A stretch of 64,000 nt of DNA from Sedimentisphaeraceae bacterium JB056 (GCA_044440125.1 JBITAJ010000012.1:128001-192000); one strand, 5' to 3'. Shown: positions 13,831 to 57,810, counted from the first letter of the stretch. Notes: generated from the letters alone by a model not told the origin. A program made the numbers and translations.

Positions 13831-15081
13831 ATGACTGTAGTGGTGAAAAAAAAGTTTGAGGATTTCGTGAATACGAAAAATCAGGATGTTTTCAGTAAGG
13901 CGTTCGAACTCAATGCTTATCTTCAGGAGAATCCTGAGAAGATGTTGTCGGGGCTTGGTCTTAAAATGCAGGGTCCGGCAGCGCCCAATACTGTTCTGCT
14001 TGACGATGCTGAGCATGAAGTGATAATGCTTGGCTCGAATTCATATCTGAATCTTACAACTCATCCCGATGTAGTGGCAGCATCAAAAGCTGCTTGCGAA
14101 AAATATGGTTATGGTATGGGTGCAGTGTCGCTTTATGCCGGAATCACAGAACTGCACCGTGAGCTTGAAATCGCAATCGCAGACTTTTACAGTACCGAAG
14201 ATGCGATTGTCTTTCCTTCCGGTTATGGAACTAATATAGGGGTTATCTCGGCGATATGTAATCACGATGATATTATAATCAATGATTCGGCAAATCACTC
14301 TTCAATTTTTGATGGCTCGGTTCTCTCCGGTGCAACGCTGAAAATTTATCTGCACAGGGATATGAAAAAACTTGAGCATGTATTGTCTCGAATCGATCGG
14401 AAAGGTCGCGGCGTACTGATTATAACCGATGGCGTTTTTTCAATGCATGGTGATCTTGCACCGCTTGATGAAATTGTTTCTCTTGCGGAAAAATATGATG
14501 CCAGAGTTATGGTTGATGATGCGCATGGAATTGGGATTGTCGGCCCCGGAGGTCGCGGCACTGCGGCGGCTTTTGGCGTGCGTGATAAGATTGATTTGAA
14601 TATTGGAATGCTTAGCAAAGCACCGGGAGGCCTTGGCGGTTTCTGTGCGGCTAAAAAAGAAATCGTCGATTATCTGCGCCTGTACGCAAGGTCATATTTT
14701 TTCTCCACAGCTCTTCCTGCTCCGATAGTTGCCGGTCTCTTGGAAGTGTTCAAGTTGCTGAAGGCAAATGCTGCCGGCCGTAATCAGTTGTGGGATAATA
14801 TTAATTATCTTAAAAGTAGACTGATTGCCGCCGGTTTCAATACCGGTGAGAGTGCATCGGGAATAATACCGATTATTGTAGGTGATGAGGTTGCCTTGGC
14901 AGGATTCCATCGCGACCTTATAGATAATGGTGTGTATACAAATATTGTAAGTTATCCTGCTCTTCGGCGTAAAGAGTCAAGAGTCAGGTTGTGTGTGATG
15001 AGTTCGCTCACAACTCAGCAGATGAATAAGGCTTTGAGTGTAATAATGCAGGCGGGGAAAAAATGGCAGATAATAAAATAG
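13831..15081 (+). CDS. Alpha-oxoamine synthase (serine palmitoyltransferase/KBL/BioF family, PLP)
   Basis: MLGSNSYLNL, SGYGTNIG, NHSSIFDG, DGVFSMHGD, DDAHGIG, LSKAPGGLGGF, FFSTALP. Confidence 0.85.
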   Translation: MTVVVKKKFEDFVNTKNQDVFSKAFELNAYLQENPEKMLSGLGLKMQGPAAPNTVLLDDAEHEVIMLGSNSYLNLTTHPDVVAASKAACEKYGYGMGAVSLYAGITELHRELEIAIADFYSTEDAIVFPSGYGTNIGVISAICNHDDIIINDSANHSSIFDGSVLSGATLKIYLHRDMKKLEHVLSRIDRKGRGVLIITDGVFSMHGDLAPLDEIVSLAEKYDARVMVDDAHGIGIVGPGGRGTAAAFGVRDKIDLNIGMLSKAPGGLGGFCAAKKEIVDYLRLYARSYFFSTALPAPIVAGLLEVFKLLKANAAGRNQLWDNINYLKSRLIAAGFNTGESASGIIPIIVGDEVALAGFHRDLIDNGVYTNIVSYPALRRKESRVRLCVMSSLTTQQMNKALSVIMQAGKKWQIIK

Positions 15082-16058
15082 CTCTCATAACCGGAGCCGC
15101 AGGGTTTATCGGTTTGCATACTGTTAAGAGGTTTGTATCTGAAGGCTGGTTTGTTTATGCCGTGATTCATCGCAGGCAAAGCAGCAGGCTTGATGAACTC
15201 CAGCATCAGGGAAAGGTTTTGATCTTCAAATCAGATGTTACGGATTTTGAAGAGTTGAAACAGCTTTTCGAAAAATTGCCGGAGAAAATATCAGCGGTCG
15301 TTCATTGTGCCGGACGAGCAAGCGATATTGGACGGGCTAAAGAATTCAGGACAACTAATTTTGATTCGGTTCGTTATCTTGGCGAGCTTGTCAGTAGTTA
15401 CGATATACCGAGATTTGTTTTCGTATCAACAACCGATGTCTATGGTATGAGAGATTTTCACGGTGAGGATGAGTCGCAGCTTGATTACGCAGCCAGGCCT
15501 ATCAATAATTATCCTAAATACAAAATCTTGGCTGAAAAGTGTATAAAGGATAACATGGCGCCAGAGAAATGGTGCATATTGCGACCGGCGGCTGTTTGGG
15601 GATGCGATGATCCTACGATGACCAAACGTCTGCGCGATTTTTTTGCTTCATCACCCTTTATTATTCATTTCGGTAAATGGAAGGGACAAAACAGATGGCC
15701 GGCGGTTCATGTAGACTCCGTAGCAGATGCCTGTTATCTGGGAGCAGTTGCCGATGAGGCGGCAGGTGAGGAGATAAATGTCATTGATACGGAAAAAATC
15801 AGCGTTGATCAATTCTATAGGCGAATTATTAAGCAGTATTTCCCTGACAAGAAGTTTTACAAAATCTGCTTGCCTTTCTGGGTTGGCTGGTGCGCTGGTG
15901 CAGTTGTGAGCGGTATATCAAATTTATTCAATTTATCTACTCCGATAGCTGATCCATCCCTATATGCCGCATATTCTGTGAGCAGTAATCTTGATTTCAG
16001 CGGTCAAAAACTCTTGAGAATTAAAAAACGTTACGAAAATCGCAGAAATGCGCATTAA
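15063..16058 (+). CDS. Extended SDR, NAD-dependent epimerase/3-beta-HSD-like reductase
   Basis: TGAAGFIG, HCAG, VST, YPKYK (YxxxK), LRPAAVWG. Confidence 0.88.
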   Translation: MADNKIALITGAAGFIGLHTVKRFVSEGWFVYAVIHRRQSSRLDELQHQGKVLIFKSDVTDFEELKQLFEKLPEKISAVVHCAGRASDIGRAKEFRTTNFDSVRYLGELVSSYDIPRFVFVSTTDVYGMRDFHGEDESQLDYAARPINNYPKYKILAEKCIKDNMAPEKWCILRPAAVWGCDDPTMTKRLRDFFASSPFIIHFGKWKGQNRWPAVHVDSVADACYLGAVADEAAGEEINVIDTEKISVDQFYRRIIKQYFPDKKFYKICLPFWVGWCAGAVVSGISNLFNLSTPIADPSLYAAYSVSSNLDFSGQKLLRIKKRYENRRNAH

Positions 16059-16059
16059 A

Positions 16060-16092
16060 AAGGCTTTGAAAGCATTATGCTCTCAAAGCCTT
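16060..16092. terminator. Hairpin between convergent SDR and ferredoxin genes
   Basis: aaggctttga...tcaaagcctt inverted repeat. Confidence 0.6.
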
Positions 16093-16115
16093 GATGTTTT
16101 AAACTTATCTCTGGA

Positions 16116-16286
16116 CTATTCCATAGAGATAGCTTCAACTGGACACTCATCAACGCAAGCGCCACAGTCTACACATGTATCGGCATCGATAACTGCTTTG
16201 TCGTCCATAGAAATTGCTTCGCAAGGACAAGCGTCTACGCAAGCACCGCAACCTGTGCATGTTTCTGCATCTACTACTGCTGCCAT
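16116..16286 (-). CDS. 2[4Fe-4S] clostridial-type ferredoxin, 56 aa (not in ORF track)
   Basis: MAAVVDAETCTGCGACVDACPCEAISMDDKAVIDADTCVDCGACVDECPVEAISME; two CxxCxxCxxxCP; RBS GAAAGGA. Confidence 0.95.
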   Translation of the reverse strand: MAAVVDAETCTGCGACVDACPCEAISMDDKAVIDADTCVDCGACVDECPVEAISME

Positions 16287-16843
16287 AATAAATTTCCTTT
16301 CAAAAAAAGAATCATTCCATAAGGTTACATACTTTAAAATAAAAATTACTAACGTGATATATATAAAGAAATAGGCGATTATTCCAGTAAAAAATTGAGA
16401 ATTTAGTAAAAAAATGCACAGTTTTTGCCGGGGGGCTTAAGAGGTCTCGAAAGTTGAAAGCCATGACTAACAATTGTGTTTGCTTGTAACATTTATAAGT
16501 GGTTTACATAGCTCATTTAATAAAAATCCCAGATTTACATGAAACTGAATTTTAAGGGTTTAAGGTGCTTCATTTTTTTGATTTAAATTGTTACTTGAGA
16601 AATCATAAAATTGCAATGGATTATTGTGGTATTCATTCATTCGGAGTGGTCTGATATTATTTGCTTAATGTAAGCCGTACGCTGAAAAATGTACGAATAT
16701 GATATTTTGATTTTTTTGAAGGAATTGAGAACTTTTGAAATATTGGATTGAAATAAAGTTTTTTGTAAATTCTTAAATCATTCTTTAGGCGTTGTTTAAG
16801 GCTTGTTTTGTTAGGTTTTTGTTCGGGAAATATAAAATAAATC

Positions 16844-16872
16844 TTGAATCGATTCAGCTGTGGTGATAAAAT
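16844..16872 (+). promoter_or_regulatory. Sigma70-type promoter for the phage-like module
   Basis: TTGAAT (16844-16849), 17-nt spacer, extended -10 TG-a-TAAAAT. Confidence 0.6.
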
Positions 16873-16922
16873 TTGTTAGATAAATATATAACTTTTGGAT
16901 TTGTTAATTATTTATCTAACAA
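16873..16922. promoter_or_regulatory. Perfect 14-bp inverted repeat between promoter and RBS
   Basis: TTGTTAGATAAATA (16873-16886), 22-nt spacer, TATTTATCTAACAA (16909-16922). Confidence 0.6.
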
Positions 16923-16936
16923 GGAAAGGAGCGATA

Positions 16937-17380
16937 ATGTCCCGATTTAATGAGAATACGTGTTGTGGGGTCCAGAAGCATGCAGTTGTGGCTTGTCGTG
17001 ATGATATTGACCTTATCAGAATGCGTGCGGAGAGTGTTTTCAGCGGCAAACGGCTTGCAATGATCCGTCTTTATTTTGATCGCGGAGCGACATGCCGTGA
17101 AATTGCACAGATAGCTGGCAAGAGTGAGGGGCAGATATGCCGGATAATCAATTCACTTGTGAGGAGATTGAAAGATAGTGACTGCCTGTTTTTTCTGCGG
17201 CATCGGCAGCTTTTTTCAGTTTCCGAGCAGAAAATACTCTACTCAACACTTTTTGATGCTTTGAGTTATAGAAAAGCAGCAGCCAGGCACAGGTGCAGCA
17301 TTTACAAAGTGAGGAAAGCTGTTGAGAAGCTTGGTCGTCTTAAGAAAATAGATATATCAGGAGGATTTAATGGAGATTGA
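16937..17380 (+). CDS. Double-HTH protein (sigma-70 region 4-like)
   Basis: RLYFDRGATCREIAQIAGKSEGQICR and second HTH ALSYRKAAARHRCSIYKVRK; RBS AAGGA. Confidence 0.7.
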   Translation: MSRFNENTCCGVQKHAVVACRDDIDLIRMRAESVFSGKRLAMIRLYFDRGATCREIAQIAGKSEGQICRIINSLVRRLKDSDCLFFLRHRQLFSVSEQKILYSTLFDALSYRKAAARHRCSIYKVRKAVEKLGRLKKIDISGGFNGD

Positions 17381-18029
17381 CATACAAAAGCGAGTGATGC
17401 CGCGGATAAAACTTACACCGAATATTCGGTCCATGATGCGAATTTTTTCACTGACAACTGACGATTTGAAAAGACCGCTGATTGATCTGAGCGTGAGTTT
17501 TGATCTGAAACCGGGTGAGATTTACTTTATAACCGGTCCCAGTGGATGTGGTAAAAGCTTGTTATTAAGGGAGATGAGGCGGGCGATACCATCAGATGAA
17601 AGAATAGATATTAATGATTTGCCGTTATCTGCTGTTACTACCATGATCGATTGCTTCAAAAGTGCACCTCTTGGTTTGCGGGCTTTGTCGAGGATGGGGC
17701 TTTCGGATGTATCTGCTATGCTGCTTCCGCCGGCGATTCTCAGCGAAGGGCAGAAATATCGCTACAGACTTGCAAAGGCGATAAGCTCCGGCAAACAGAT
17801 TATTATCGCTGATGAATTTTGCTCTACACTTGACAAGGTTACGGCTGGTTTACTGTGTCTCAAGCTTCGCCGCATTGCCGACAGGACTGGTAAAATATTC
17901 ATTCTTGCCGGTCATAGCCGTGGGCTGTTGCCTGATTTGATGCCCGATTGTGTCTTGCAGGTGCATTCCAACAGTGAGATTATCAAGCTTAAGCGTATTG
18001 ACCAGACAGATATGTATGAGAGGGCGTGA
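17370..18029 (+). CDS. ABC-type ATPase (COG2401 ATPase moiety, no transporter partner)
   Basis: GPSGCGKS, signature LSEGQKYR, Walker B IIIADEF. Confidence 0.8.
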   Translation: MEIDIQKRVMPRIKLTPNIRSMMRIFSLTTDDLKRPLIDLSVSFDLKPGEIYFITGPSGCGKSLLLREMRRAIPSDERIDINDLPLSAVTTMIDCFKSAPLGLRALSRMGLSDVSAMLLPPAILSEGQKYRYRLAKAISSGKQIIIADEFCSTLDKVTAGLLCLKLRRIADRTGKIFILAGHSRGLLPDLMPDCVLQVHSNSEIIKLKRIDQTDMYERA

Positions 18030-18733
18030 TGTGCGGTATTGGGAATATTCTAAAAGAAGCTTATATTGAGCAGGTAACGAAGGCCGACTATCAACCATTT
18101 GCTTGTTTTCATTATCGAAAAGGGCGTTTGCCGGTTGTGGACAAGGTGTTTGCGTTGGTGTTACCGGAATTTGGACGGATTGCCATTGTGGTCTACTCCT
18201 TTCCGCCTTGCCACTTACTTGCCAGACGTATGGCTTTGGGTGATTGGTTGCCGCGATTAGATCGCTCATCAATGATGCGGTTTATAAATGCCAATATTCG
18301 CTCAATATCGAGGGTTGTGGTTGTGCCTGAGTTTCGGGGGATTTCGGCGGCATCTTTGCTTATTAGCAACAGTTTGGATAGGCTATGTGTGCCGCTTATT
18401 GAATCGGTAGCGGCTATGGGCGAGTTTAACAGCTTTTTTGAGAAGGCGGGGTTTGTCAAGTCTACTGCGCCTGTCAGTGACAGGTGCCGGAATATGGCTA
18501 ACATATTGCGAGAAAATGGTTTAGGTGGTGATATGCTCTTTGATGCGGATTTGGCATTGAGGTATATCAATACGCTGAGCGATAAGCAAAAACCGCGTAT
18601 ATGGCATGAGATAGACCGCTTTATTGGAGCTTATGGCAGGAAAAGATTGCTTTCCGATAAGCGGCAACGGGTGAATATTGTTTTGTCGAGACTTAACGGT
18701 TCTGGGACATATTTCTACAAATTTTGCAATTAA
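18026..18733 (+). CDS. GNAT-fold acyltransferase (COG2401 acetyltransferase moiety, Mom-like)
   Basis: FHYR, ISRVVVVPEFRGISAA (acetyl-CoA motif A), AAMGEFNSFFEKAGF; GTGA overlap with ATPase. Confidence 0.75.
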   Translation: MMCGIGNILKEAYIEQVTKADYQPFACFHYRKGRLPVVDKVFALVLPEFGRIAIVVYSFPPCHLLARRMALGDWLPRLDRSSMMRFINANIRSISRVVVVPEFRGISAASLLISNSLDRLCVPLIESVAAMGEFNSFFEKAGFVKSTAPVSDRCRNMANILRENGLGGDMLFDADLALRYINTLSDKQKPRIWHEIDRFIGAYGRKRLLSDKRQRVNIVLSRLNGSGTYFYKFCN

Positions 18734-18842
18734 TTTAAAACTATCAGAGCTTCCCATATGAGGAAGCATATAAAACGCATAGAGTTTGCTGCCGGCTTAC
18801 TGACGTGCACGGCTCTGAAAGCTTATTAAAGAGGGAGAGAAG

Positions 18843-19238
18843 ATGGCTAAGATAAGTAAAAAGCAGAGGGATTTTCTGGACTGTATAATTGACAGCCGGA
18901 TAGAGGTTGAGGCGGCGATGGAGCAGCTTGGCATCAGCAGCGACACGATTTGTCGTTGGTTTTCAATGGAAGCGTTTACTCAGGAAATCACGCGCCGCAT
19001 TGATGTGATAACCAGACGTGCTGATATGATTATTTCGCAAAACAGGCTTCTTGCCGCCAAACGGCTTGTGAAGCTGACGAATTGTGAGAAGGAGGAGACT
19101 GCGAGAAAGGCGTGTCTTGATATACTGGAGCTTACCGCGGCGGGAAAGGTAGAGGAGAATCAGGGCACAATGCCGCAGATATCACAGCAGACCGCCGCAA
19201 AACTGCTGGAAATACTCGCAAACGAAAAGCAAATGTAA
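18843..19238 (+). CDS. Phage-type HTH protein, possible terminase small subunit
   Basis: N-terminal HTH (KKQRDFL...AAMEQLGISSDTICRW) followed by helical AAKRLVKL...ARKACLDIL. Confidence 0.55.
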   Translation: MAKISKKQRDFLDCIIDSRIEVEAAMEQLGISSDTICRWFSMEAFTQEITRRIDVITRRADMIISQNRLLAAKRLVKLTNCEKEETARKACLDILELTAAGKVEENQGTMPQISQQTAAKLLEILANEKQM

Positions 19239-19353
19239 AGAAGAAAGCTTTATTTTGTCTGTGGTGGTTTCATTTTTTCATAAAAACAGTAAAATATCTA
19301 CAGTTTAGTTGGCATTAAAGATATTTATAACGATAAGTTTGAAAGGTTAGAGA

Positions 19354-19782
19354 ATGAAGATTGCTATAGCATCAGATCACGCGGGTTTTGATTACAAAGA
19401 AGCGGTTAAGGCATTTTTGCTCGAAAAAGGCTACGAAGTAGAAGACTTCGGCACATATTCTAAGGATTCCTGCGACTATCCTGATTTTATTTTTCCAGCG
19501 GCACGCGCGGTTGCTGAAGGCAAGTGCGAGAGGGGTATTGTATTCGGCGGCAGCGGCAACGGCGAAGCTATCGCGGCTAACAAGATCAAGGGTGTACGCT
19601 GCGGGCTTGCATGGGACTTGCGTTCAGCACGTCTTTGCCGTGAGCACAATGATGCGAATGTACTGTCAATGGGGCAGAGAATGTTAGCGGTAGAAGAAAT
19701 GCTCGAAATTACTGAGCTCTGGCTCAACACGGATTACGAAGGCGGCCGCCATCAGAAGAGAATTGATAAGCTCGATATCTGA
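19354..19782 (+). CDS. rpiB: Ribose-5-phosphate isomerase B
   Basis: IASDHAG, DYPDF, GGSGNGEAIAANK, HNDANVL, GGRHQKRI. Confidence 0.93.
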   Translation: MKIAIASDHAGFDYKEAVKAFLLEKGYEVEDFGTYSKDSCDYPDFIFPAARAVAEGKCERGIVFGGSGNGEAIAANKIKGVRCGLAWDLRSARLCREHNDANVLSMGQRMLAVEEMLEITELWLNTDYEGGRHQKRIDKLDI

Positions 19783-19812
19783 CAGTTATCAGTAAACAGT
19801 TATCAATTATCA
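19783..19812 (+). repeat. Tandem heptamers (CAGTTAT family), left flank
   Basis: cagttat cagtaaa cagttat caattat ca. Confidence 0.75.
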
Positions 19813-19856
19813 TAGGCTCTCGCCGTTTGCAGAGATAGAAATTATAGGAGGAGAAA

Positions 19857-20255
19857 TTGAATAACGGAATTGACAGCAAAGTTTATAAGTTGGCGTGTAA
19901 GTTTTCGATAAAAATAGTTAAGCAATGTCGAATCTTACGTGACGAAAAAGAATTTGTTCTTTCAACTCAACTGCTTAAGAGTGGCACTTCAATAGGCGCA
20001 AATATTGCAGAAGCCAACGGTGCTATATCTATGGCTGATTTTTCGGCTAAGATATCAATTTCGTATAAGGAAGCTTTGGAAACAAAGTACTGGCTCGATC
20101 TTTTGAAGGATACTGATACAATAGGTCTTGAATGTTATGATGAGCTATTTCGATCCGTTGATGAAATTGCGAAAATTTTGTATTCCATATTGAAGACGAC
20201 AAGAAATATAAATCCTGAGAAAAAATCTGATATTGCAGATGGCGATAGCCGATAA
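19857..20255 (+). CDS. Four-helix-bundle protein (TIGR02436 / 23S rRNA IVP-like)
   Basis: KEFVLSTQLLKSGTSIGANIAEA...DFSAKISISYKEALETKYWLDLL; RBS AGGAGG, TTG start. Confidence 0.9.
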   Translation: MNNGIDSKVYKLACKFSIKIVKQCRILRDEKEFVLSTQLLKSGTSIGANIAEANGAISMADFSAKISISYKEALETKYWLDLLKDTDTIGLECYDELFRSVDEIAKILYSILKTTRNINPEKKSDIADGDSR

Positions 20256-20280
20256 CTGTTAACTGATAATTGATAACTGA
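20251..20280 (-). repeat. Tandem heptamers, right flank, inverted relative to the left flank
   Basis: gataact gttaact gataatt gataact ga (reverse complement of CAGTTAT units). Confidence 0.75.
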
Positions 20281-20297
20281 ATTTGGAGGAGAAAATC

Positions 20298-21761
20298 ATG
20301 TCTATTTCTGCGGCCAGTTTGCGCGCGGCGGGTGGGGTTTATCGTGCGCTTCGTAAAATCAAACCTCAAACAAAAGAGCAGTTGCTCAATTATGTAAAGG
20401 TATTTTTAGGTGTCAGCGTGCCTGATCAGGTAGTTTGTTCGGGGCATAGCTCACCGGCGGATTATCTTTGGCATGCTTTCAACTGTGATGATGATGCGTC
20501 CGTTTCAAACGGAGATTGTGTTGTGTGGGCAAACCGCGGCGGCGGCAAAACTATGATGGCGGCGGTTGCCACTCTTCTTGATTGTCTATTCAAAGATGCT
20601 GCGCAGGTTCGTATACTTGCAGGCTCTTTCGATCAGGCTTCCAGGATGTATGAGTATCTTGTGAAGTTTGTCTCTGATGGTTTTGAGGATAAGCTTGCCG
20701 AGCCGATTAAAAAAAGCGGTATGTCTTTTGTCAACGGCTCGAAAGTTGAAGTGCTCACGCAATCTGCAAAGAGTGTTCGCGGGTGTCATATTCATAAGCT
20801 GAGATGTGATGAAGTGGAGATGTTTGATACGGAAGTTTTCGAGGCGGCGCAATTCATAACACAATCGACTGACGGCAAAAAAGCCGCGATGGAAATTGCT
20901 TCAACAATGCACAGGCCGTATGGTTTGATGCAGGATGTTGTTGCCGGTGCTAAAGAAAATTCTGTGCCGATATTCAAATGGTGTCTGTGGGAAGTTATTG
21001 AAAAATGCACGCAGCAGAGTTGTTCGCGATGTCCTTTGAATGATGATTGTCGCGGCCGTGCAAAACATGCCGATGGCTACTATAGGATTGATGATGCAAT
21101 AAGTCAGATGCGGCGTTCAAGTCGACAGAGCTGGCAGGCGGAAGTTTTGTGTGAGCGTCCGCTTAATGATAAGCTTGTGTTCTCTGATTTCGAAAGAACG
21201 GTTCATGTTAAGCCGGTAGAGTTTGATATTCGTTTGCCGCTTTATCGCACGATCGATTTTGGTTTTGTCAATCCGTTTGTCTGTCTATGGATACAGGTTG
21301 ATGGAAGCGGGGTGGTGCGTGTGTTGCGGGAGTATCAGCAGAGCCGCATGACAATACTTGCCAACACCGAAAAAATAATTTCGATAACGCCGTGCGATGA
21401 AGCTTGCGTTGCCGCGACATTTTGCGATCCCGCAGGCAATCAGCATAGCGATATTACAGGCACAAACTGTGTGCAGGAAATGCGCCGTGCGGGAGTTCGT
21501 GTGAGAAGCTGTAAGAGCGGCATACTTGAAGGTATTGAAAAAATACGCAAAGCTCTTAAAGACGGCTTCGGCAATTCACGAATTGTCATAGACCCCAAAT
21601 GCACAAATCTTATAAAGTCGCTTGAGACGTATCACTATCCCGACAACTCTCCATCAGAGCTGCCGGTAAAAGACGGCATAAGCGATCATCACATAGATGC
21701 TCTGCGATACTTCTTTGTTAATTATGAAAAAAATACAAAGGTCATTCAGCGACGGTATTGA
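20298..21761 (+). CDS. Phage terminase large subunit-like protein
   Basis: Walker A ANRGGGKT, Walker B LRCDE, motif III AST, nuclease motifs IDFGFVNP, CDPAG, DHHIDALRY; RBS GGAGGAG. Confidence 0.85.
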   Translation: MSISAASLRAAGGVYRALRKIKPQTKEQLLNYVKVFLGVSVPDQVVCSGHSSPADYLWHAFNCDDDASVSNGDCVVWANRGGGKTMMAAVATLLDCLFKDAAQVRILAGSFDQASRMYEYLVKFVSDGFEDKLAEPIKKSGMSFVNGSKVEVLTQSAKSVRGCHIHKLRCDEVEMFDTEVFEAAQFITQSTDGKKAAMEIASTMHRPYGLMQDVVAGAKENSVPIFKWCLWEVIEKCTQQSCSRCPLNDDCRGRAKHADGYYRIDDAISQMRRSSRQSWQAEVLCERPLNDKLVFSDFERTVHVKPVEFDIRLPLYRTIDFGFVNPFVCLWIQVDGSGVVRVLREYQQSRMTILANTEKIISITPCDEACVAATFCDPAGNQHSDITGTNCVQEMRRAGVRVRSCKSGILEGIEKIRKALKDGFGNSRIVIDPKCTNLIKSLETYHYPDNSPSELPVKDGISDHHIDALRYFFVNYEKNTKVIQRRY

Positions 21762-22476
21762 GTTGCTGCAATTTCTTTTTCTTGTGTTTTGTAATTAATG
21801 TTACCGATAGAATGATAATACCGGCAACTATAAAGCAGATTACTCCTATTGCTTTGGGCAGTAGGGAGTATAATTGTTCCATGCCGCAGGCTTGATAACG
21901 GGTTGTCAGTTTCTGCGGGGTAGCGGTGAGTTTTTCACAGCCTTTAGTTACGTTGATTTTGAACTGATATTGGCCTTCCGCGATTGGGAAAAAGCGGATA
22001 AGCATTATGTAGCTGCCTGAGCTTTCGTTATGTAAGGTGTAATCTGCAGAGGAATCTCCGCTGATGTATATTTCGCCGTCAGGTTTTAGAATTTGCCATG
22101 AGTATTCCAACTCTTCAAGCAGAGTTTCCCGTGAGAGAAGTTTGCTATCCAATTCAGGAATAAACAAATCGATTGTCTGCGAGTGAGATACGGAAAGATG
22201 CTGGATGAATTCGCTTTCGTATTCGCCTGGTTTAGAAAAGTCAACTTCTATATCCATTGCCGACTTGGGCAGGTTTGTCTTTATGTGGTCTTTGATTCTA
22301 AATCCTTCGATCAGACAATAAGTACCAAAGCCAATAAGCCCTGTGGCTATGATACAAAAAAATATTCTGAATATAGGTGGTAGTTTCTTTATCTTATTTT
22401 TGATTGATGCTGATTTGCTCATAAAATCCGATGGGTCAGGACTGAGGCATTTCTCTGCCTTCTTTTCATTTGACAT
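21742..22476 (-). CDS. Hypothetical membrane protein, two TM segments flanking a soluble domain
   Basis: IFFCIIATGLIGFGTYCLI and IGVICFIVAGIIILSVTLI; RBS GGAGAGG. Confidence 0.65.
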   Translation of the reverse strand: MSNEKKAEKCLSPDPSDFMSKSASIKNKIKKLPPIFRIFFCIIATGLIGFGTYCLIEGFRIKDHIKTNLPKSAMDIEVDFSKPGEYESEFIQHLSVSHSQTIDLFIPELDSKLLSRETLLEELEYSWQILKPDGEIYISGDSSADYTLHNESSGSYIMLIRFFPIAEGQYQFKINVTKGCEKLTATPQKLTTRYQACGMEQLYSLLPKAIGVICFIVAGIIILSVTLITKHKKKKLQQLNTVAE

Positions 22477-22502
22477 TTCCCTCTCCTTGCATTATGAAAT
22501 TT

Positions 22503-22530
22503 GTAGAGACGCGATTAATCGCGTCTCTAC
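22503..22530. repeat. REP palindrome (GTAG family)
   Basis: Perfect 28-bp palindrome GTAGAGACGCGATTAATCGCGTCTCTAC. Confidence 0.8.
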
Positions 22531-22541
22531 TGTCTGGCTGT

Positions 22542-23558
22542 TTAGTTATCCTTAATTTCGAAGATTAGTTCGAAATCTTTTTTCTCGTGAGGCTTCAGGA
22601 TTGTAAGGCAGTCTTGTTCTCTTGCTGCTTTTTGTCCTATTGGGAAATTAGTTCCCGGTTCGATACCTGTAACATATTCGCCGCGTCCCCAGTGCTGCCA
22701 GTTTGTGAGGCATGGCAGTTGAGTGTTCTTGAATTTCAGTTGTGCGGTGATGCCGAGTTTTGGATTTTTAATTCCCGCGGTGCAAAGCCCATCGCTTCCG
22801 GCCTTTGGTGTTATGAATCCGCACGCTTCGCCGAAGCCGTTGTGTTTCTCCTGCGGCGCGCAGCATTTTTTATAATCGTTGCTGTCGTTGAAAATGTCAT
22901 TGTCTCCATCGCCGCCGCGTGATTTCACATCGCCATCATAAAACAGTTCGCATCCTTCGTCTACCAATGGCCATCCGAAGTTACAATGGTAGAGCAGCAT
23001 AAGCGGGGCATCGGTATTGCCGGCGTTACAGACTCTGTCATTGATTTGTATTTTTGACTGTCCGGCAAACGCGGTGATGGTCCGTTTGAGTTTGAGATTA
23101 GGACCAAAGAGAGAGCTTTCCTTGATCGTGGCTGTGATTTTCATTGTTGGCTGGTCATCGCAAAGACACGGCTGTATGACAGACTCAAGCTCTGCCGGAA
23201 GATTGCTGTATTTTCCGTGCAGACCGTGGCCTTCTTCGGGGCCGCCAAAATGTGACAATCCGCATGTTGTTACAAGCCCGCCGCTGAAATTGCTCAGCCA
23301 ATGCAAGCCTTCACCAATATCACGACGCGGTGCACTTAAACCCACATGGCTGAGCCACGCCAGTGAGTAAGGCCCGTAGAATGCGTCAACGATATCAAGC
23401 CCGCGATCTATCGCTACCTTGAATCGCAGTCCTGAGCCTGTGTTTACCCATGCGATGCGTGAGCCTCTTGCGTTTCCGTTGTCTGCGGTGTATGTTTCGA
23501 TGCCGCAGAGCTGGTTGTGGTTGATTATTTTACCCTTAAATTCGCTTAGCAAATCCAT
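22542..23558 (-). CDS. Aldose 1-epimerase-like protein (DUF4432)
   Basis: NTGSGLRF, DRGLDI, GGLVTTCGL, GLHG, LYHCNFGWPL, YVTGIEPGT. Confidence 0.85.
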   Translation of the reverse strand: MDLLSEFKGKIINHNQLCGIETYTADNGNARGSRIAWVNTGSGLRFKVAIDRGLDIVDAFYGPYSLAWLSHVGLSAPRRDIGEGLHWLSNFSGGLVTTCGLSHFGGPEEGHGLHGKYSNLPAELESVIQPCLCDDQPTMKITATIKESSLFGPNLKLKRTITAFAGQSKIQINDRVCNAGNTDAPLMLLYHCNFGWPLVDEGCELFYDGDVKSRGGDGDNDIFNDSNDYKKCCAPQEKHNGFGEACGFITPKAGSDGLCTAGIKNPKLGITAQLKFKNTQLPCLTNWQHWGRGEYVTGIEPGTNFPIGQKAAREQDCLTILKPHEKKDFELIFEIKDN

Positions 23559-23841
23559 TATGCTGCTCCTTATTAAAGCCGTACAGGTTAAAAAACAGTT
23601 TTTAGTTCGTAGTTCGTAGAGAGTAGAAAATATGGCAAAGCCAACGTTAAATTATTTATAAATATTAAAATATAATAATACTTGGATAAACAGTTGCTGT
23701 CCAGATAAATTTTACAGGGCAAGGGGTTTATTTAAGCATTTGGCAATACTGATATTAAGGATTTTACTTGTTTATTCTGTCGTTTGTTTTTGTACAATAC
23801 TTACTGTCAGTACAGATAATCTATAATTAAAAGGAGAAAAA

Positions 23842-24849
23842 ATGGACTATAGGCCACTTGGAAGAACAGGAGTAAAGGTAAGTTCTTTGTGTCTTGGCTG
23901 CATGAACTTTGGCGGCAAGACCAATATGGAAGATTCATCCGAAATAATGGATCATGCGATTGACAGCGGGATAAATTTCTTTGATACCGCTAATGTTTAC
24001 AGTCGCGGCGAAAGTGAAAAGACTGTCGGTGCGGCTCTCAAGGCCAACGGCAAGCGTGATAAGATTGTTTTGGCGACTAAGGTTCACGGCAAAATGGATG
24101 ACGATGATGTAAATGCTCAGGGCAACAACCGCAGGCATATAATTCAGCAGTGCGAAGCCTCGTTAAAACGGCTAAAGACTGATTGGATAGACCTTTATCA
24201 GATTCACAGGCCTGACAGTACTATACCGATAGATGAGACGTTGCGTGCTCTGGACGATTTGATCCGTGCCGGCAAGGTGCGATATGTCGGAACCAGTACT
24301 TTCGCTGCGTGGCAGATGGTAAAGGCTCACTGGATTGCCAAAGAGCTGGGGCTCAACCGTTTTATCTGTGAGCAGCCGCCTTATAATCTGCTCGATCGCC
24401 GTATAGAGAGGGAGCTTATACCGATGGCCATCAGTTTCGGTATGGCGATTATACCATGGTCACCGCTTGCAAGTGGTTTTCTCACAGGGAAATACAAACG
24501 AAACGAGGATAGGCCCGAGGGATCAAGGCTAAAGACGAACAAATTCCACGAGGATTGTTTCGAGGACCGATGTTTTGATGTTGTGGAGGAAGTTGAAAAG
24601 ATGGCCAAGGAAAAAGGCTGCACTCCGAGTCAGCTGAGTCTTGCATGGTGCGTTGGCCAGCCGGGTGTCACCAGCCCGATAATCGGACCTCGTACTATGG
24701 AGCAGCTTAAGGATAATCTTGGTGCTCTTGATGTTGAGCTGGATTCTGAATATTTGGCAAGGCTTGATAAGATCAGCGAGCCGGGGCACGGCAGTGCCAG
24801 GTTCTACGAGGCGGATTTTGGGCCTGAAAAATTTGTCGGTTTGTTATAA
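23842..24849 (+). CDS. Aldo/keto reductase
   Basis: LGRTGVKVS, INFFDTANVY, LATK, IDLYQIH, PWSPLASG. Confidence 0.92.
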   Translation: MDYRPLGRTGVKVSSLCLGCMNFGGKTNMEDSSEIMDHAIDSGINFFDTANVYSRGESEKTVGAALKANGKRDKIVLATKVHGKMDDDDVNAQGNNRRHIIQQCEASLKRLKTDWIDLYQIHRPDSTIPIDETLRALDDLIRAGKVRYVGTSTFAAWQMVKAHWIAKELGLNRFICEQPPYNLLDRRIERELIPMAISFGMAIIPWSPLASGFLTGKYKRNEDRPEGSRLKTNKFHEDCFEDRCFDVVEEVEKMAKEKGCTPSQLSLAWCVGQPGVTSPIIGPRTMEQLKDNLGALDVELDSEYLARLDKISEPGHGSARFYEADFGPEKFVGLL

Positions 24850-24867
24850 GCTGGATTTAATATAAAG

Positions 24868-24905
24868 AAAAAGGAAGCGGTATATTGTTTCCCGCTTCCT
24901 TTTTT
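24868..24905. terminator. Bidirectional intrinsic terminator
   Basis: aaaaaggaagcgg...ccgcttcctttttt between convergent genes. Confidence 0.75.
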
Positions 24906-24913
24906 ATTGATTT

Positions 24914-26188
24914 TTAGTTTTTCAAAAAGCTTTTGTAGTATTCATCTACATTTACGACTTTGCCTTCTACCCTTGCTTTTTCAGCGGCAAATGCTGCGAT
25001 GTGACTATGCATCGCGGAACCGATTTTTGATCCGCTTTGTGATGTGAAGTCGTCGTAGAAGTCGTGCATCAGGCCGTAGTCTCCTCCGCCGTGATGTCCG
25101 TAACCTTCTTCATTGTCTATTTTTATGTTGATTCTTTCGATGTCTCTGGTGAGGTGGTCGCGAATCATGATATCTGCGTCTGTGCTTAGTTTTTCGATTG
25201 CCCAGCCGTAAAGAGTACCCTTTGTTCCGAGTATTTGGAGCTGGCGACCATAATTGAATGCACTCATTGTAAATGTTCCGGTTGCGCCGCTTTCAAACTC
25301 AAAGCTGAGTACCTGGTGGTCAACGGCAGTGTTGTCGCATTTGAATGCGCAGCGACCCCATTTGCTTTCCTTGAGCCATTTATCGATCTCGGAATCAGTC
25401 ATTTTGTCGCCATTAGGCAACAGATATGTCAGCCATTCCTTGTTCTTTGTTTTGTATGTTTGTGCATCATAGAGACAGCTTTCGCTTGCCGGGCATCCGT
25501 CAATACATCTTTCGGGAGAGTTCTCCGGTGCGTGTGCCTTGTCAAAGTATGAGATACGTCCGAAGCTTGCTATGTTTTCGAATTTACTTGATGTGAGCCA
25601 GTGCAGTATATCCATGTCGTGGCATGATTTGGCAACGATCATTGGCGTGCTGTCTTCCGTTACTGCCCAGTGTCCGCGTACGAATGAGTGACTTTGATGC
25701 CACGGGTCAACGCCTTCGACCGCGCTTATTGATACTATTTCGCCAAGGCGGCCAGAATCAATAATCTCTTTTACCTTCTTGTAGAAAGGTGTGTATCTCA
25801 ATACGTAGCAGATAGTTACGCTTTTGTTGAGCTTCTCGGCGGTTTGCTGTATCGATATTATCTTCTCGATAGTGTCGGCAGCTGGTTTTTCAAGGATGAT
25901 GTCGTATCCTTTTTCCATTGCCTCAATACATGGCTCGTAATGGTAGTTGTCCTGCGTGCCGATTATCATTACATCGGCAAGTTTGTCGCAGGCGAGTATT
26001 TCCTTGTCGCTTTTGAATAACTGGAAGTCCGGATTGTCAGATACGGCCTTGATTTTCTCGGCCTTTTCAGTTATCGGGTCGGCAGCGGCGGTTATCTCGT
26101 ATCTGTCCTTCATCATCGCTGCTACTGATGTGTAAGTCTGTGCGCGCGGGCCACAACCAATAGCAGCCAGCCTTATTTTCTTTTCCAT
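24914..26188 (-). CDS. Gfo/Idh/MocA family oxidoreductase
   Basis: IGCGPR, ILEKP, VLRYTPF, HSFVRGHW, AKSCHDMD, GHHGGGD. Confidence 0.9.
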   Translation of the reverse strand: MEKKIRLAAIGCGPRAQTYTSVAAMMKDRYEITAAADPITEKAEKIKAVSDNPDFQLFKSDKEILACDKLADVMIIGTQDNYHYEPCIEAMEKGYDIILEKPAADTIEKIISIQQTAEKLNKSVTICYVLRYTPFYKKVKEIIDSGRLGEIVSISAVEGVDPWHQSHSFVRGHWAVTEDSTPMIVAKSCHDMDILHWLTSSKFENIASFGRISYFDKAHAPENSPERCIDGCPASESCLYDAQTYKTKNKEWLTYLLPNGDKMTDSEIDKWLKESKWGRCAFKCDNTAVDHQVLSFEFESGATGTFTMSAFNYGRQLQILGTKGTLYGWAIEKLSTDADIMIRDHLTRDIERINIKIDNEEGYGHHGGGDYGLMHDFYDDFTSQSGSKIGSAMHSHIAAFAAEKARVEGKVVNVDEYYKSFLKN

Positions 26189-44670: not shown

Positions 44671-44736
44671 GTTATGAAAAAGGGATATACGGAAAATTGA
44701 TTTAACGGAATTTGAAAAAAATTGCAGAGGAAGTTT

Positions 44737-46632
44737 ATGAAACTATATTTATCAAATATTTCAACCGCATTAGCGTTGGTTTTCGTTTTATCACTGAATG
44801 TATCGGCAGTTGAGAAAAAAAGACTTGATCAATACGAGGCGGTTGTCTTTTCGGGATATTATAAAACCGCGGAACAATTCGAGGCTTTTGCCGTGGAGGC
44901 AAAGGAATTGGGTGCCACTCATGTGATTATCAGTTCCGGTTTGCCATTGGGAATGTGGAAGTATGATACCCCGGGTGATCCATACCCGGCGTGGCTGGAG
45001 CACCAGGTAGGGCTTTTAGAAATATTTCCACCGCAGGCGATTCGTGAGCATATTCCCCAATCACGGACACAGGCTCTCCAGTGCGAGTTAAAAAGTCGCA
45101 GTGAGATACTTCGTCGTCTTGGGCTGCGAGCGATGTTCGGCAACAATGAGCCCCAAGTCGTGCCGGAGGGCATTTTCGAGGATCATCCGTTATGGCGAGG
45201 CCCTCGGGTTGACCATACACTTCGTTCACGGGTGCCTCGTTTTGCGATGAACGTAGATAACCCGGATGTTCTTGCCTTGTATAGAGAGGCGGCGGAAAAA
45301 CTTATTGCCAACTATCCTGAAATCGATCTTTACAGGTTAGTTACTACTGATGCCGGTTCCGGGTTTGACTGGAGTCCGGGGTTGTATCCCGGCATTAACG
45401 GCAACACCCTGTATAAGGATCGTCCAATGTTCGATCGAGTCAACGGCTTTTTACAGGCATTGCGGTCGGGTGCCCGTGCAAGCGGAGGCAGCCTGGATAT
45501 CAATGTTGTTCCCATTAAGCCATATTCATGGATGATACCAAGCTTTGAGAATTACTCGCAGTATGCCTTGCGTTTCGATGAAGGGCTGGCGATGGCAAAT
45601 CTTGAAGGCTCTGATGCTTCGCCGTTCATGTCAAATGCTGGGATTTCGTGGAATTGGAATTTCTTTTTCCCTGTGGCAGGTTTAGAGCAGCCCGTATCTG
45701 TGTTGCGTCAATTGGTCTCCGCCGCTGACAGCCTGGCACCGCGGCTGATGATGACGCTCGACCCCTGGACCGGAGATTTGTATCCGACGCTTTTTGAGCG
45801 TTTCTGGAAGGAGCCTGCAAAGAACGAAATTGAACAATTGGAGTTGCTGCGTGAAATAGCTGCCCGGCGTGTTGGCGATAAACACGCCGACAATCTGTTA
45901 AAAGTGTGGCTGGCAACCGACGATGCTCTCAAAAGCGCGAGCGTCTTGAAGATTCACATGCCGCTGATGACCGGAGGCGTGCACCAGCGTTGGCTGATAA
46001 GGCCTCTGGTGCCTATGCCTGAGCTTTTAACACCTCAGGAAACGCGATATTACGACCAGTATGTTTTTCAGGCATTGGATGAGGGCCATGCCGCAAATTA
46101 CGCTGATCTGCAGGCTACGCAGGTTTATGGCGGCTGGGAAGGTAAGTTTTTCGTTGAGCAGATCACTTTCAATGTTAATAATGATCTAAATCGTGCCCGC
46201 AAATATCTGGCTCCGATCATTGAAGATCTTTCAGGGCCGATGAAAAAGAACTACCAATTGCTGGATCTTCGTCTGCAAGCGGCTAACTGCATTGTTAATA
46301 ACGTGCGGCATTTCGCAAGCTACCAGGGACAATTGGATCGCGTTAAAGATTTGCAGATAAAACCCCAGTACCATCCGGTACTGGGCACACAAAGCAATTG
46401 GGATAGAACTCTCATTATGAACACGGCACGCGAGGAGCTTGACAATACCGCTCTTTTGATCGACATTCTGCAACGAACCTCAGAGACGGTCATTATTACT
46501 GCTGAAACACCTGAAGAAGAACGTATTCGGATGTTAGGCCCTGAATTGATCTGGCAACTGCAAAAAAAGTTAAAGATCATGAATTCGCACTGGAATGATT
46601 ACGATCGCATCTTCACCCGACCCAATCCATAG
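44737..46632 (+). CDS. Secreted hypothetical protein, family B paralog 1 (homolog of 54110)
   Basis: Signal peptide; AKELGATH, GDPYPAW, NEPQ, RGPRVD, TTDAGSGFDWSPGLYPG, C-terminal PNP. Confidence 0.65.
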   Translation: MKLYLSNISTALALVFVLSLNVSAVEKKRLDQYEAVVFSGYYKTAEQFEAFAVEAKELGATHVIISSGLPLGMWKYDTPGDPYPAWLEHQVGLLEIFPPQAIREHIPQSRTQALQCELKSRSEILRRLGLRAMFGNNEPQVVPEGIFEDHPLWRGPRVDHTLRSRVPRFAMNVDNPDVLALYREAAEKLIANYPEIDLYRLVTTDAGSGFDWSPGLYPGINGNTLYKDRPMFDRVNGFLQALRSGARASGGSLDINVVPIKPYSWMIPSFENYSQYALRFDEGLAMANLEGSDASPFMSNAGISWNWNFFFPVAGLEQPVSVLRQLVSAADSLAPRLMMTLDPWTGDLYPTLFERFWKEPAKNEIEQLELLREIAARRVGDKHADNLLKVWLATDDALKSASVLKIHMPLMTGGVHQRWLIRPLVPMPELLTPQETRYYDQYVFQALDEGHAANYADLQATQVYGGWEGKFFVEQITFNVNNDLNRARKYLAPIIEDLSGPMKKNYQLLDLRLQAANCIVNNVRHFASYQGQLDRVKDLQIKPQYHPVLGTQSNWDRTLIMNTAREELDNTALLIDILQRTSETVIITAETPEEERIRMLGPELIWQLQKKLKIMNSHWNDYDRIFTRPNP

Positions 46633-46677
46633 GGTTTGATTTGCTCCATCAATAAAAGTGGAAGATTTGATAAGAAA

Positions 46678-46809
46678 ATGAGTTTAGAAAGGTTTTTGAG
46701 TAGATTTGACCAGATAGCATTTCCAACGGGAGAGACAAAGCTTGAGTCTTGGGTGGATATGGGCAGAAATAGATATTGTCTCAGGTTTATTGAAATAGAA
46801 AAATTATAG
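46678..46809 (+). pseudogene. Remnant of a sulfatase 3' end
   Basis: SRFDQIAFPTGETKLESWVDMGRNRYCLRFIEIEKL* aligns without gaps to sulfatase end CRFDSIELQEGPASLEAWVDMDGKKYGFRFITIEKL*. Confidence 0.8.
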
Positions 46810-46825
46810 TTATAAGGATTATATA

Positions 46826-49483: not shown

Positions 49484-49530
49484 AAATATTAAATAAGTTA
49501 ATTGGAATTATATTTATTCGGAGTTATGGA

Positions 49531-52137: not shown

Positions 52138-52237
52138 CCTTGGAAGGATATATGTGATCAAAAAATCATAAGAAATTATTATAGTAAAAGAAAATCACGG
52201 TGAAATTGAATATGCTTTTATTAAGAGGTAAATAAAA

Positions 52238-54106: not shown

Positions 54107-54109
54107 GAA

Positions 54110-55924: not shown

Positions 55925-55958
55925 TTTTTATAATATGATTTAATGATAAAGCTATATT

Positions 55959-57797: not shown

Positions 57798-57810
57798 GGT
57801 TAGGTTTTTT

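Follow-up and report, generated by a model that had tools for sequence, protein, structure and literature searches.

A 64 kb stretch of DNA from Sedimentisphaeraceae bacterium JB056 (G000:C12:128001-192000, called the window below; assembly 4.54 Mb, 99.8% complete) was analysed, and a module of seven open reading frames (ORFs) at 16937-21761, among them the genes of a small (TerS) and a large (TerL) phage terminase, was followed up. The module is probably the packaging arm of an ancient phage head system that was split and kept by its host; the system is similar to a gene transfer agent (GTA) and may lack a tail. The evidence consists of intact catalytic residues in TerL, inheritance along host families under purifying selection, and head genes that lie on another contig and share the distribution of TerL. 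Genomes, contigs, loci and families are referred to by G, C, L and f numbers. The features of the module and its borders (positions in the window) are:

16844-16872, + strand: promoter-like site, TTGAAT, 17-nt spacer, TAAAAT, with TG extension (consensus match)
16873-16922, no strand assigned: inverted repeat with 20-nt arms, candidate operator or 5' leader hairpin
16937-17380, + strand: helix-turn-helix (HTH) protein (Sigma70_r4 1.1e-6; HTH_23 5e-6)
17370-18029, + strand: ABC-type (non-transporter) ATPase (ABC_tran 3.4e-14; phrog_293 2e-26; phrog_11143 6e-20)
18026-18733, + strand: GNAT-like protein of acyl-CoA N-acyltransferase fold, 235 aa (phrog_886 6e-13)
18843-19238, + strand: small terminase TerS, 131 aa (phrog_2538 8e-8; phrog_24579 6e-5)
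19354-19782, + strand: RpiB, host sugar-phosphate isomerase (PF02502 6.9e-58)
19857-20255, + strand: four-helix-bundle protein cassette (TIGR02436 7e-28 / PF05635)
20283-21761, + strand: large terminase TerL, 492 aa (phrog_2 3.6e-22; Terminase_6C; fold match)
21747-21768, + strand: terminator-like hairpin at the TerL end (consensus scan)

All seven ORFs are intact and share the + strand, separated by short gaps or overlapping slightly; the co-oriented order of HTH, ABC ATPase, GNAT, TerS-like, rpiB, four-helix-bundle and TerL genes, free of frameshifts, that the original prediction had read from the sequence was found again in full. Its further statement, that genes for integrase, portal, capsid, tail and lysis are missing there, was borne out by family scans, which were empty for these families among the 13 ORFs at 15063-26188 (Pfam, NCBIfam, PHROGs, PADLOC) and among 31 further ORFs of the window (Pfam only). 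A tyrosine integrase was matched on neither contig C12 nor contig C1; a contiguous prophage genome with integrase, replication, lysis and tail modules was not found, the head genes being on the other contig. No LexA/CI-type repressor was seen beside the module, Pfam giving no S24 or CI family among the 13 ORFs at 15063-26188. Neither NCBIfam nor PADLOC had a specific match to TerL, TerS or the GNAT-like protein.

TerL was recognised by Pfam (Terminase_6C 28 bits, cut-off 22.6; Terminase_6N 21.2 bits, just under the cut-off of 22) and by a PDB profile match (8e-7); its motifs are NRGGGKT (Walker A) and LRCDE (Walker B). Across 31 order-level sequences there is no variation at G88, K89 and T90 of Walker A, at D176 and E177 of Walker B or at the nuclease residues D325, D382 and D472. 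In a wider alignment of 45 rows, real phages included, every row has K89, and every row spanning the nuclease domain has its aspartates; the Walker B D-E pair is altered in one IMG/VR contig and in the f64 row, and intact in the other rows. When the TerL model (pLDDT 67, pTM 0.49) was compared with solved structures, all top Foldseek matches were TerLs (Thermus phage D6E, 5oe8/5oe9, E 4e-20, then T4 gp17, HK97 and Sf6 gp2); TMt to the P22 nuclease domain was 0.76. The two-domain fold of ATPase and RNase-H-like nuclease is common to the solved large terminases and the window TerL, which are only 10-16% identical; in the window TerL, whose model is of moderate quality, an N-terminal extension of ~75 residues and a cysteine-rich linker are additional. 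This linker, between the ATPase and nuclease domains, holds a cluster CX4CX2CX5C (residues 242-256, nt 21006-21050) that is present in all but two planctomycete rows and in three related IMG/VR contigs, and in 0/9 outgroup phage TerLs. The CX2CX5C spacing of the last three cysteines resembles that of the iron-sulfur 'staple' of AddB/Cas4-type nucleases.

The match of TerS to phrog_2538 spans residues 3-121. HTH_23 was matched weakly at residues 17-40 (E 0.0085, below cut-off) and no Pfam TerS family was matched; an N-terminal HTH is probable. The position of TerS upstream of TerL is kept in 31/59 loci.

Several TerL genes of relatives are of unusual form. In many f110 genomes (e.g. G477, G483, G489, G501) the class-level TerL matches in three separate pieces, and in several class members (e.g. 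G663, G681, G547) the open frame is 600-858 aa long, vs about 490; these forms may reflect inteins, insertions or N-terminal fusions. In the IMG/VR loci L038 and L039 an ORF of 304 aa matches the TerL ATPase domain only (45% identity) and a separate nuclease-like segment (32%) lies ~2.2 kb upstream, so that TerL is split or rearranged there.

Structural genes elsewhere in the genome, as anticipated by the original prediction, were located on contig C1 (32 kb), flanked by genes of glycogen metabolism and by pseudopilin genes; they include a portal gene, a scaffold-like ORF and a gene for the major capsid protein (MCP):

G000:C1:18323-19888: portal, SPP1-type (PF05133 3.8e-20; phrog_64 8e-26)
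G000:C1:20015-20419: scaffold-like ORF, 134 aa (PF06810 2.7e-5, below cut-off)
G000:C1:20553-21704: MCP, SU10-type (PF17236 3.3e-86; phrog_1328 2e-80)
within the head locus G000:C1:18323-23112, after the MCP gene: two ORFs of 221 and 202 aa (no family match, PHROGs and Pfam)

HK97-type portal (PF04860) and capsid (PF05065) families were tried and gave no match in this genome, the SPP1-type portal and SU10-type MCP being found instead. Portal, scaffold, MCP and the 221-aa ORF are common to 21/21 head loci (20 relatives and the own genome); proteins resembling the product of the 221-aa ORF occur in viruses, and a weak lead points to Mu Gp36. After the head genes an extra block of ~8 ORFs (one of ~610 aa) without family match is present in 10/21 loci. 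In the head locus L126 of one relative, 10/11 downstream ORFs gave no PHROG or Pfam match; a weak PHROG match (E 0.0038, family of unknown function) was obtained for one ORF, together with two sub-threshold Pfam Ig-like matches.

Within the order, portal and MCP genes are single-copy (50/61 and 51/61 genomes, respectively; MCP 62-71% identical), and an MCP was matched in 162/301 genomes of the class. A hand tally of these 301 genomes gave TerL and MCP together in 157, TerL only in 26, MCP only in 5 and neither in 113; it is a description, not a test, related genomes not being independent. Families without TerL are also without MCP (f111, f116, f118, f120, f121 and f122; 0/51 for both). At phylum level, f64 (17 genomes listed) and f47 carry an MCP of 46-51% identity, and TerL matches there weakly and in the nuclease domain only; the head system apparently extends past the class, its terminase there being a different one or evolving fast.

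This co-distribution bears on one of the two main alternatives, in which the terminase module would serve capsid-independent processing of host DNA (e.g. defence or DNA repair) and its link with head genes would be a leftover of ancestry. Such a role would suit the 26 class genomes with TerL and no MCP match (f113, f119 and G061 among them) and seven order genomes with neither portal nor MCP, all described below, as well as the clade-specific cysteine cluster absent from the outgroup phage TerLs and the weak PADLOC matches of the ABC protein (mad3 2.3e-11, ATPase-Toprim 1.7e-8). These PADLOC matches, however, reflect the generic ABC fold, with none for TerL, TerS or the GNAT-like protein, and many of the MCP absences fall in fragmented metagenome-assembled genomes (MAGs). 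TerL and MCP occur together in 157 genomes and are missing together from the same families, and TerS is retained at a ratio of nonsynonymous to synonymous substitution (dN/dS) of 0.10; to our knowledge, TerS is known only from capsid packaging. A capsid-independent role is considered unlikely.

The arrangement of the two arms varies among genomes. TerL and the head genes lie on different contigs of the window's own genome, at least ~154 kb apart by contig geometry; in the complete genomes G001 and G003, TerL and MCP are separated by 0.98 and 0.69 Mb. MCP, portal, GNAT-like, TerS and TerL genes are found in similar order over 46-66 kb in G054:C47, G038:C1 and G028:C12, with other genes interspersed between the parts of the system. 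The scattered arrangement has the look of a late prophage region that was taken apart stepwise, and successive natural stages in the conversion of a prophage into dispersed host genes can be followed in the system.

The window's own genome has a single copy of TerL. An orthologue of 48-61% identity was found in 57/61 genomes of the order (38/41 genera, all 8 families sampled); the four genomes without a match are 86-90% complete. A profile search of the class gave TerL in 183/301 genomes, including all 43 of the window's own order; rich families are f10 (13/13), f11 (5/5), f109 (35/42), f114 (35/43) and f110 (19/22), and poor ones f111 (0/12), f116 (0/7), f118 (0/18), f120 (0/12), f112 (11/44) and f12 (1/10). 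Presence follows families, mostly in an all-or-none manner. In a phylum sample of 401 genomes, strong TerL matches outside the class were few and most families had none. When one genome from each of 185,579 species was scanned with two peptide patterns, 399 TerL carriers were obtained; the best 80 are all MAGs, either labelled Planctomycetota, Phycisphaerae or Sedimentisphaerales or bearing submitter labels such as Pirellulales. Patchy, strain-specific presence, which the original prediction had named as counter-evidence, was thus not what was found.

In a survey of 21 loci (the window and 20 loci chosen for long contigs), the cluster contained TerL in 21, TerS in 13, HTH, ATPase and GNAT-like genes in 12 each, and RpiB in 7. 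Where TerL stood alone, the GNAT-like gene was found elsewhere in 5/5 genomes and TerS in 3/5; both share the TerL contig in G038, G028 and G054, and the GNAT-like gene lies on the TerL contig in G039 and on a different contig in G051.

A TerL tree of 29 rows was built from 27 genomes (those of the 57 positives with fetched loci) and two phage outgroups. The 8 GTDB family labels require 7 changes on it, the minimum (shuffled mean 18.5; 0/200 shuffles as low), and the terminase tree matches taxonomy in this respect, as had been proposed. Families f1, f2, f3, f5 and f8 each lie on one side of a branch, the f1 clade of the window with 96% support; for f7, the only scattered family, monophyly was not rejected (p-AU 0.39, approximately unbiased test). 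In a 45-row TerL tree the planctomycete clade has 100% support and stands well apart from other phage TerLs.

Selection was estimated from congeneric pairs with unsaturated synonymous distance. For G003/G005 (dS 0.68-0.91), dN/dS was 0.093 (TerL), 0.101 (TerS), 0.101 (GNAT-like), 0.143 (HTH) and 0.166 (ABC ATPase), vs 0.075 for RpiB; TerL gave 0.099 for G039/G043 and 0.06-0.18 in pairs with dS >1, where the values are less reliable. The ratio of about 0.1 across five phage-derived genes is well below 1, in line with the expectation put forward earlier, and the set of phage genes is supported, on sequence comparison, as vertically inherited and under purifying selection in Phycisphaerae. Long-term domestication of the terminase genes, the core of the original prediction, agrees with the single copy, the family-congruent tree, the low dN/dS and the head genes elsewhere.

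The same data bear on whether the genes could be the remnant of a decaying or cryptic prophage, or of a temperate phage family that integrates repeatedly, and be useless to the host. The genes clearly come from phages, a ParB-like gene and the extra head-locus block of relatives are missing from the own genome, and whole families of the class lack the system, all of which a remnant would explain. It would explain neither the seven intact ORFs with dN/dS of 0.09-0.17 in unsaturated pairs nor the single copy in the own genome and the presence in 57/61 order genomes with a family-congruent tree; host genes are moreover interleaved at the same places across families, and no orthologue at order-level identity was found in 50,697 phage records or in IMG/VR. 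A remnant without host function is regarded as highly improbable.

The phage records searched were those of INPHARED (50,697), in which the best TerL matches were partial and 23-31% identical, none covering >=80% of the query. A scan of IMG/VR with the single TerL protein gave nothing; with the TerL alignment the best matches were three short contigs, 36-45% identical, which fall outside the Phycisphaerae core clade. Among 80 IMG/VR loci kept, none had a homologue of the ABC ATPase, the GNAT-like protein or TerS, and one had an MCP of 25% identity. A terminase nested among active phages, which the original prediction had named as evidence against domestication, was not seen in either collection.

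Klebsiella phage pJN2-26 and Rhizobium phage V1VFA-S provided the closest gene order: ParB, ParB, ATPase, small genes, an acyltransferase-like gene (annotated as 'acyl-CoA N-acyltransferase domain' protein, or a homologue of one), a small gene, HTH/TerS, TerL, SPP1-type portal and one further gene, followed in pJN2-26 by a putative MCP. In gene content and order the window module is thus like the pre-terminase/packaging region of a real phage. A ParB-like ORF (PF02195 7.7e-9) stands between the GNAT-like gene and TerS in 6/21 relatives' loci; no homologue was found in the window's own genome (tblastn). Likeness in gene content and order extends to the SSU5-like phage-plasmids (pJN2-26, Salmonella phage SSU5) and the Rhizobium phages (V1VFA-S, RHEph10 group), the ATPase being 33% identical to that of the window and TerL 21% over its full length. 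In contrast to the window module, which stands alone among host genes, these phages are complete mobile genomes of ~100-120 kb. The window TerL is set off from theirs by a long branch and the added four-cysteine cluster, and the window HTH protein and TerS have no detectable similarity to the phage counterparts (no BLASTP alignment with those at the same positions in V1VFA-S).

Two host genes separate TerS from TerL. The rpiB gene stands between them in 7/21 loci of three families and within 6 kb upstream of TerL in 19/59 species with enough flank; since it recurs upstream of TerL in many loci, the insertion is old or recurrent. The original prediction had described rpiB as a housekeeping gene between terminase genes: the position was confirmed, the housekeeping status was not, the gene being one of two RpiB paralogues (42.6% identical) in a genome where RpiA gave no match. 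The four-helix-bundle cassette was found upstream of TerL in 0/59 other species and is a lineage-specific insertion. In a relative ~96% identical, the cassette region (19778-20286) is replaced by 533 unrelated letters, 1,446 extra letters stand between TerS and rpiB (window 19239-19334), and divergence is also seen in the GNAT-like gene towards its C-terminal end (18453-18823) and in the central portion of TerS (18887-19068). The gaps of the module are evidently insertion sites.

The gene upstream of the module ends in a hairpin (16060-16092) and is followed by a 560-bp AT-rich spacer. Consensus scanning gave 19 promoter-like sites vs 13.8 expected; the arms of the inverted repeat at 16873-16922 are 90% complementary and 10 nt apart, and the repeat lies between a promoter-like site and the HTH start codon. 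The HTH protein has 147 aa from the ATG at 16937, which is preceded by a good ribosome-binding site (GGAAAGGAG); an alternative start, TTG at 16895, would give 161 aa. Its HTH resembles sigma-70 region 4, and an orthologue stands immediately 5' of the ATPase gene in 12/21 loci. From this layout the spacer would be the module's own regulated promoter and the HTH protein a candidate regulator. For GafA, the activator of the Rhodobacter capsulatus GTA (RcGTA), a tentative similarity to sigma-factor DNA-binding domains is reported (PMC9638019); the likeness to the HTH protein is an analogy only.

The ABC-type ATPase (219 aa) has no membrane partner. Its identity of 33% to proteins of SSU5-like phage-plasmids extends over 86-89% of the length, and the SSU5-like homologues are also encoded upstream of the terminase; further relatives occur in Rhizobium, Pseudomonas and Stenotrophomonas phages. 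The neighbouring 235-aa ORF gave no Pfam match. Among its structure neighbours in the Atlas (TM 0.75-0.86) only some carry Acetyltransf_1, which also occurs among its feature neighbours; the Atlas neighbours include fused ABC_tran+Acetyltransf_1 proteins, mostly of Uroviricota. Motif A of GNAT proteins being R/Q-x-x-G-x-G/A, a motif-A-like R-x-x-G-x-A stretch was read from the family alignment (consensus RGLGLA; window copy RGISAA). In Rhizobium phages the homologue sits between the ATPase and terminase genes. The motif-A-like stretch and the Atlas neighbours suggest that the product of 18026-18733 is a GNAT-like partner of the ATPase.

The following course is proposed for the system as a packaging apparatus. 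The ancestor would have been a tailed phage whose late region held ParB-like, ABC-type ATPase, GNAT-like, TerS, TerL, SPP1-type portal, scaffold and capsid genes; after fixation in the chromosome, host genes (here rpiB and the four-helix-bundle cassette) would have been inserted and the head genes would have drifted away. A signal would activate the module at the promoter region in front of it, with the HTH protein and the palindrome (16873-16922) as candidate switch, and the unlinked head operon would be co-expressed. TerS would bind DNA and recruit TerL, which would dock on the portal of procapsids built by that operon; the TerL nuclease would cut the DNA and the TerL ATPase would pump until the head is full. 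With genes dispersed over at least ~154 kb, and none found for replication, integration, tails or lysis, the system would probably be unable to pack its gene set as one unit into a particle. The particle would most likely hold host DNA, as a GTA-like viriform, possibly tailless, that would be released and taken up.

The findings were set beside the features by which GTAs and other viriforms are recognised (PMC9662315). Particle genes from a tailed phage are present (TerS, TerL, portal, scaffold-like gene, MCP), as is vertical transmission in a cellular genome, with the caveat of a conflicting placement within f1 given below; a tail and a means of release were not found in the own genome, few families having been searched. 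With the RcGTA-type GTAs of Alphaproteobacteria (PMC9662315) the system shares tailed-phage origin, vertical inheritance, purifying selection and split loci, and in both TerS, TerL, portal and HK97-class capsid genes are present and integrase and replication genes absent. It differs in phylum, and an independent origin is likely (SU10-type MCP, SPP1-type portal, SSU5-like pre-terminase module); tail and lysis genes were not found, and ABC-type ATPase, GNAT-like and HTH genes are additional and conserved.

Capsid-forming phage-inducible chromosomal islands (cf-PICIs) likewise have capsid, portal and terminase genes of their own and no tail genes, and their heads take the tails of an infecting phage. 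These islands are mobile, carry integrase and replication genes and occur patchily, whereas the Phycisphaerae system is immobile, scattered and vertically inherited. The second main alternative is modelled on them: an immobilised capsid-forming, satellite-like system would make heads upon infection by a tailed phage and take the phage tails, for interference or for the spread of host DNA. Head and packaging genes without tail genes found in the own genome are consistent with it, and the 221-aa ORF of 21/21 head loci, through its weak Mu Gp36 lead, would fit a head-completion protein as tail docking site. On the other hand, integrase, replication or att features were not found, the single-copy genes, with their taxonomy-congruent tree, are immobile and spread over at least 150 kb, and the extra block in 10/21 relatives may encode neck or tail parts of the system's own. 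We know of no helper phage, and this mode is thought quite unlikely.

Several observations weigh against a host-kept packaging system. The 45-row tree places the window TerL away from two other f1 rows (98% branch), in conflict with the 29-row tree; nor are the window RpiB and MCP nearer to f1 relatives than to members of other families, so that this placement points to long branches and not to transfer. Parts of a particle are missing: Phage_sheath_1, PhageMin_Tail and tape-measure families gave no match in the own genome and no lysis gene was identified, only few families having been searched, so that unrecognised tail or lysis genes are possible; the extra ~8-ORF head-locus block of relatives was not found in the own genome (tblastn). 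TerS seems to keep its HTH, by which packaging may be site-directed, whereas RcGTA gp1 is without one, a feature proposed to underlie random packaging (PMC6854486).

Further such observations come from genomes with a motor and no matched capsid. The 26/301 class genomes with TerL and no MCP match (E 1e-30) include f113 (TerL 3/3 vs MCP 0/3) and f119 (2/2 vs 0/2), and the complete genome G061 has an intact TerL and no SU10-type MCP at E 1e-5 or 1e-30; in G061, f113 and f119 the motor may have been kept after the capsid was lost or replaced. Within the order, portal and MCP are both missing from seven genomes that have TerL, one of which is G036 (97% complete, 20 contigs). Since whole families of the class are without the system, it is not essential. 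Most of the sampled genomes are MAGs, so that absences are soft.

A bolder version of the domesticated head system was also considered and is rather doubtful. According to it, the system would date from before the families of the class diverged and would be present also in some other Planctomycetota with an orthologous capsid gene; unlike known GTAs it would be tailless or tail-borrowing, its TerS would be site-specific so that defined stretches of the chromosome would be packaged, and a motor with a metal (possibly iron-sulfur) cluster and the ATPase/acyltransferase pair would couple packaging to cellular state. Such a site-specific, cluster-bearing, tailless system, if real, would be a new class of viriform with its own biology.

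Besides the three GTA types named below, two other domestications of tailed phages into particles owned by their hosts are known. Few independent cases being on record, another across much of a planctomycete class would widen their range. Two alphaproteobacterial GTA types and a spirochete one are classified in PMC9662315. No paper on a GTA, a domesticated capsid or a domesticated terminase in Phycisphaerae or Planctomycetota was found in the literature, most subscription journals being outside the search. Carriers are common among MAGs from sediments and anaerobic digesters, and the system would bear on gene movement in a phylum with few genetic tools. It would also account for 'orphan' terminase or capsid genes in these genomes wrongly called prophages, and it offers a handle on the conserved ATPase/acyltransferase pair beside phage terminases, for the role of which no description was found.

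The remainder of the window consists of host genes for metabolism and polysaccharide use; the genes on both flanks of the module are ordinary host genes, and the GC content and GC skew of the module are those of the flanks. An Rfam scan of 15900-22600 gave no match at E 0.01, and a tandem-repeat scan gave nothing relevant. An ORF of 108 aa at 16048-16374 is probably not a gene (low complexity, internal repeat, no family match); it overlaps the end of an epimerase gene and the hairpin at 16060-16092. Farther downstream, seven consecutive + strand ORFs of 604-891 aa without Pfam match (E 1e-5) occupy 44722-59892, where they sit among Laminin_G_3 and sulfatase genes.

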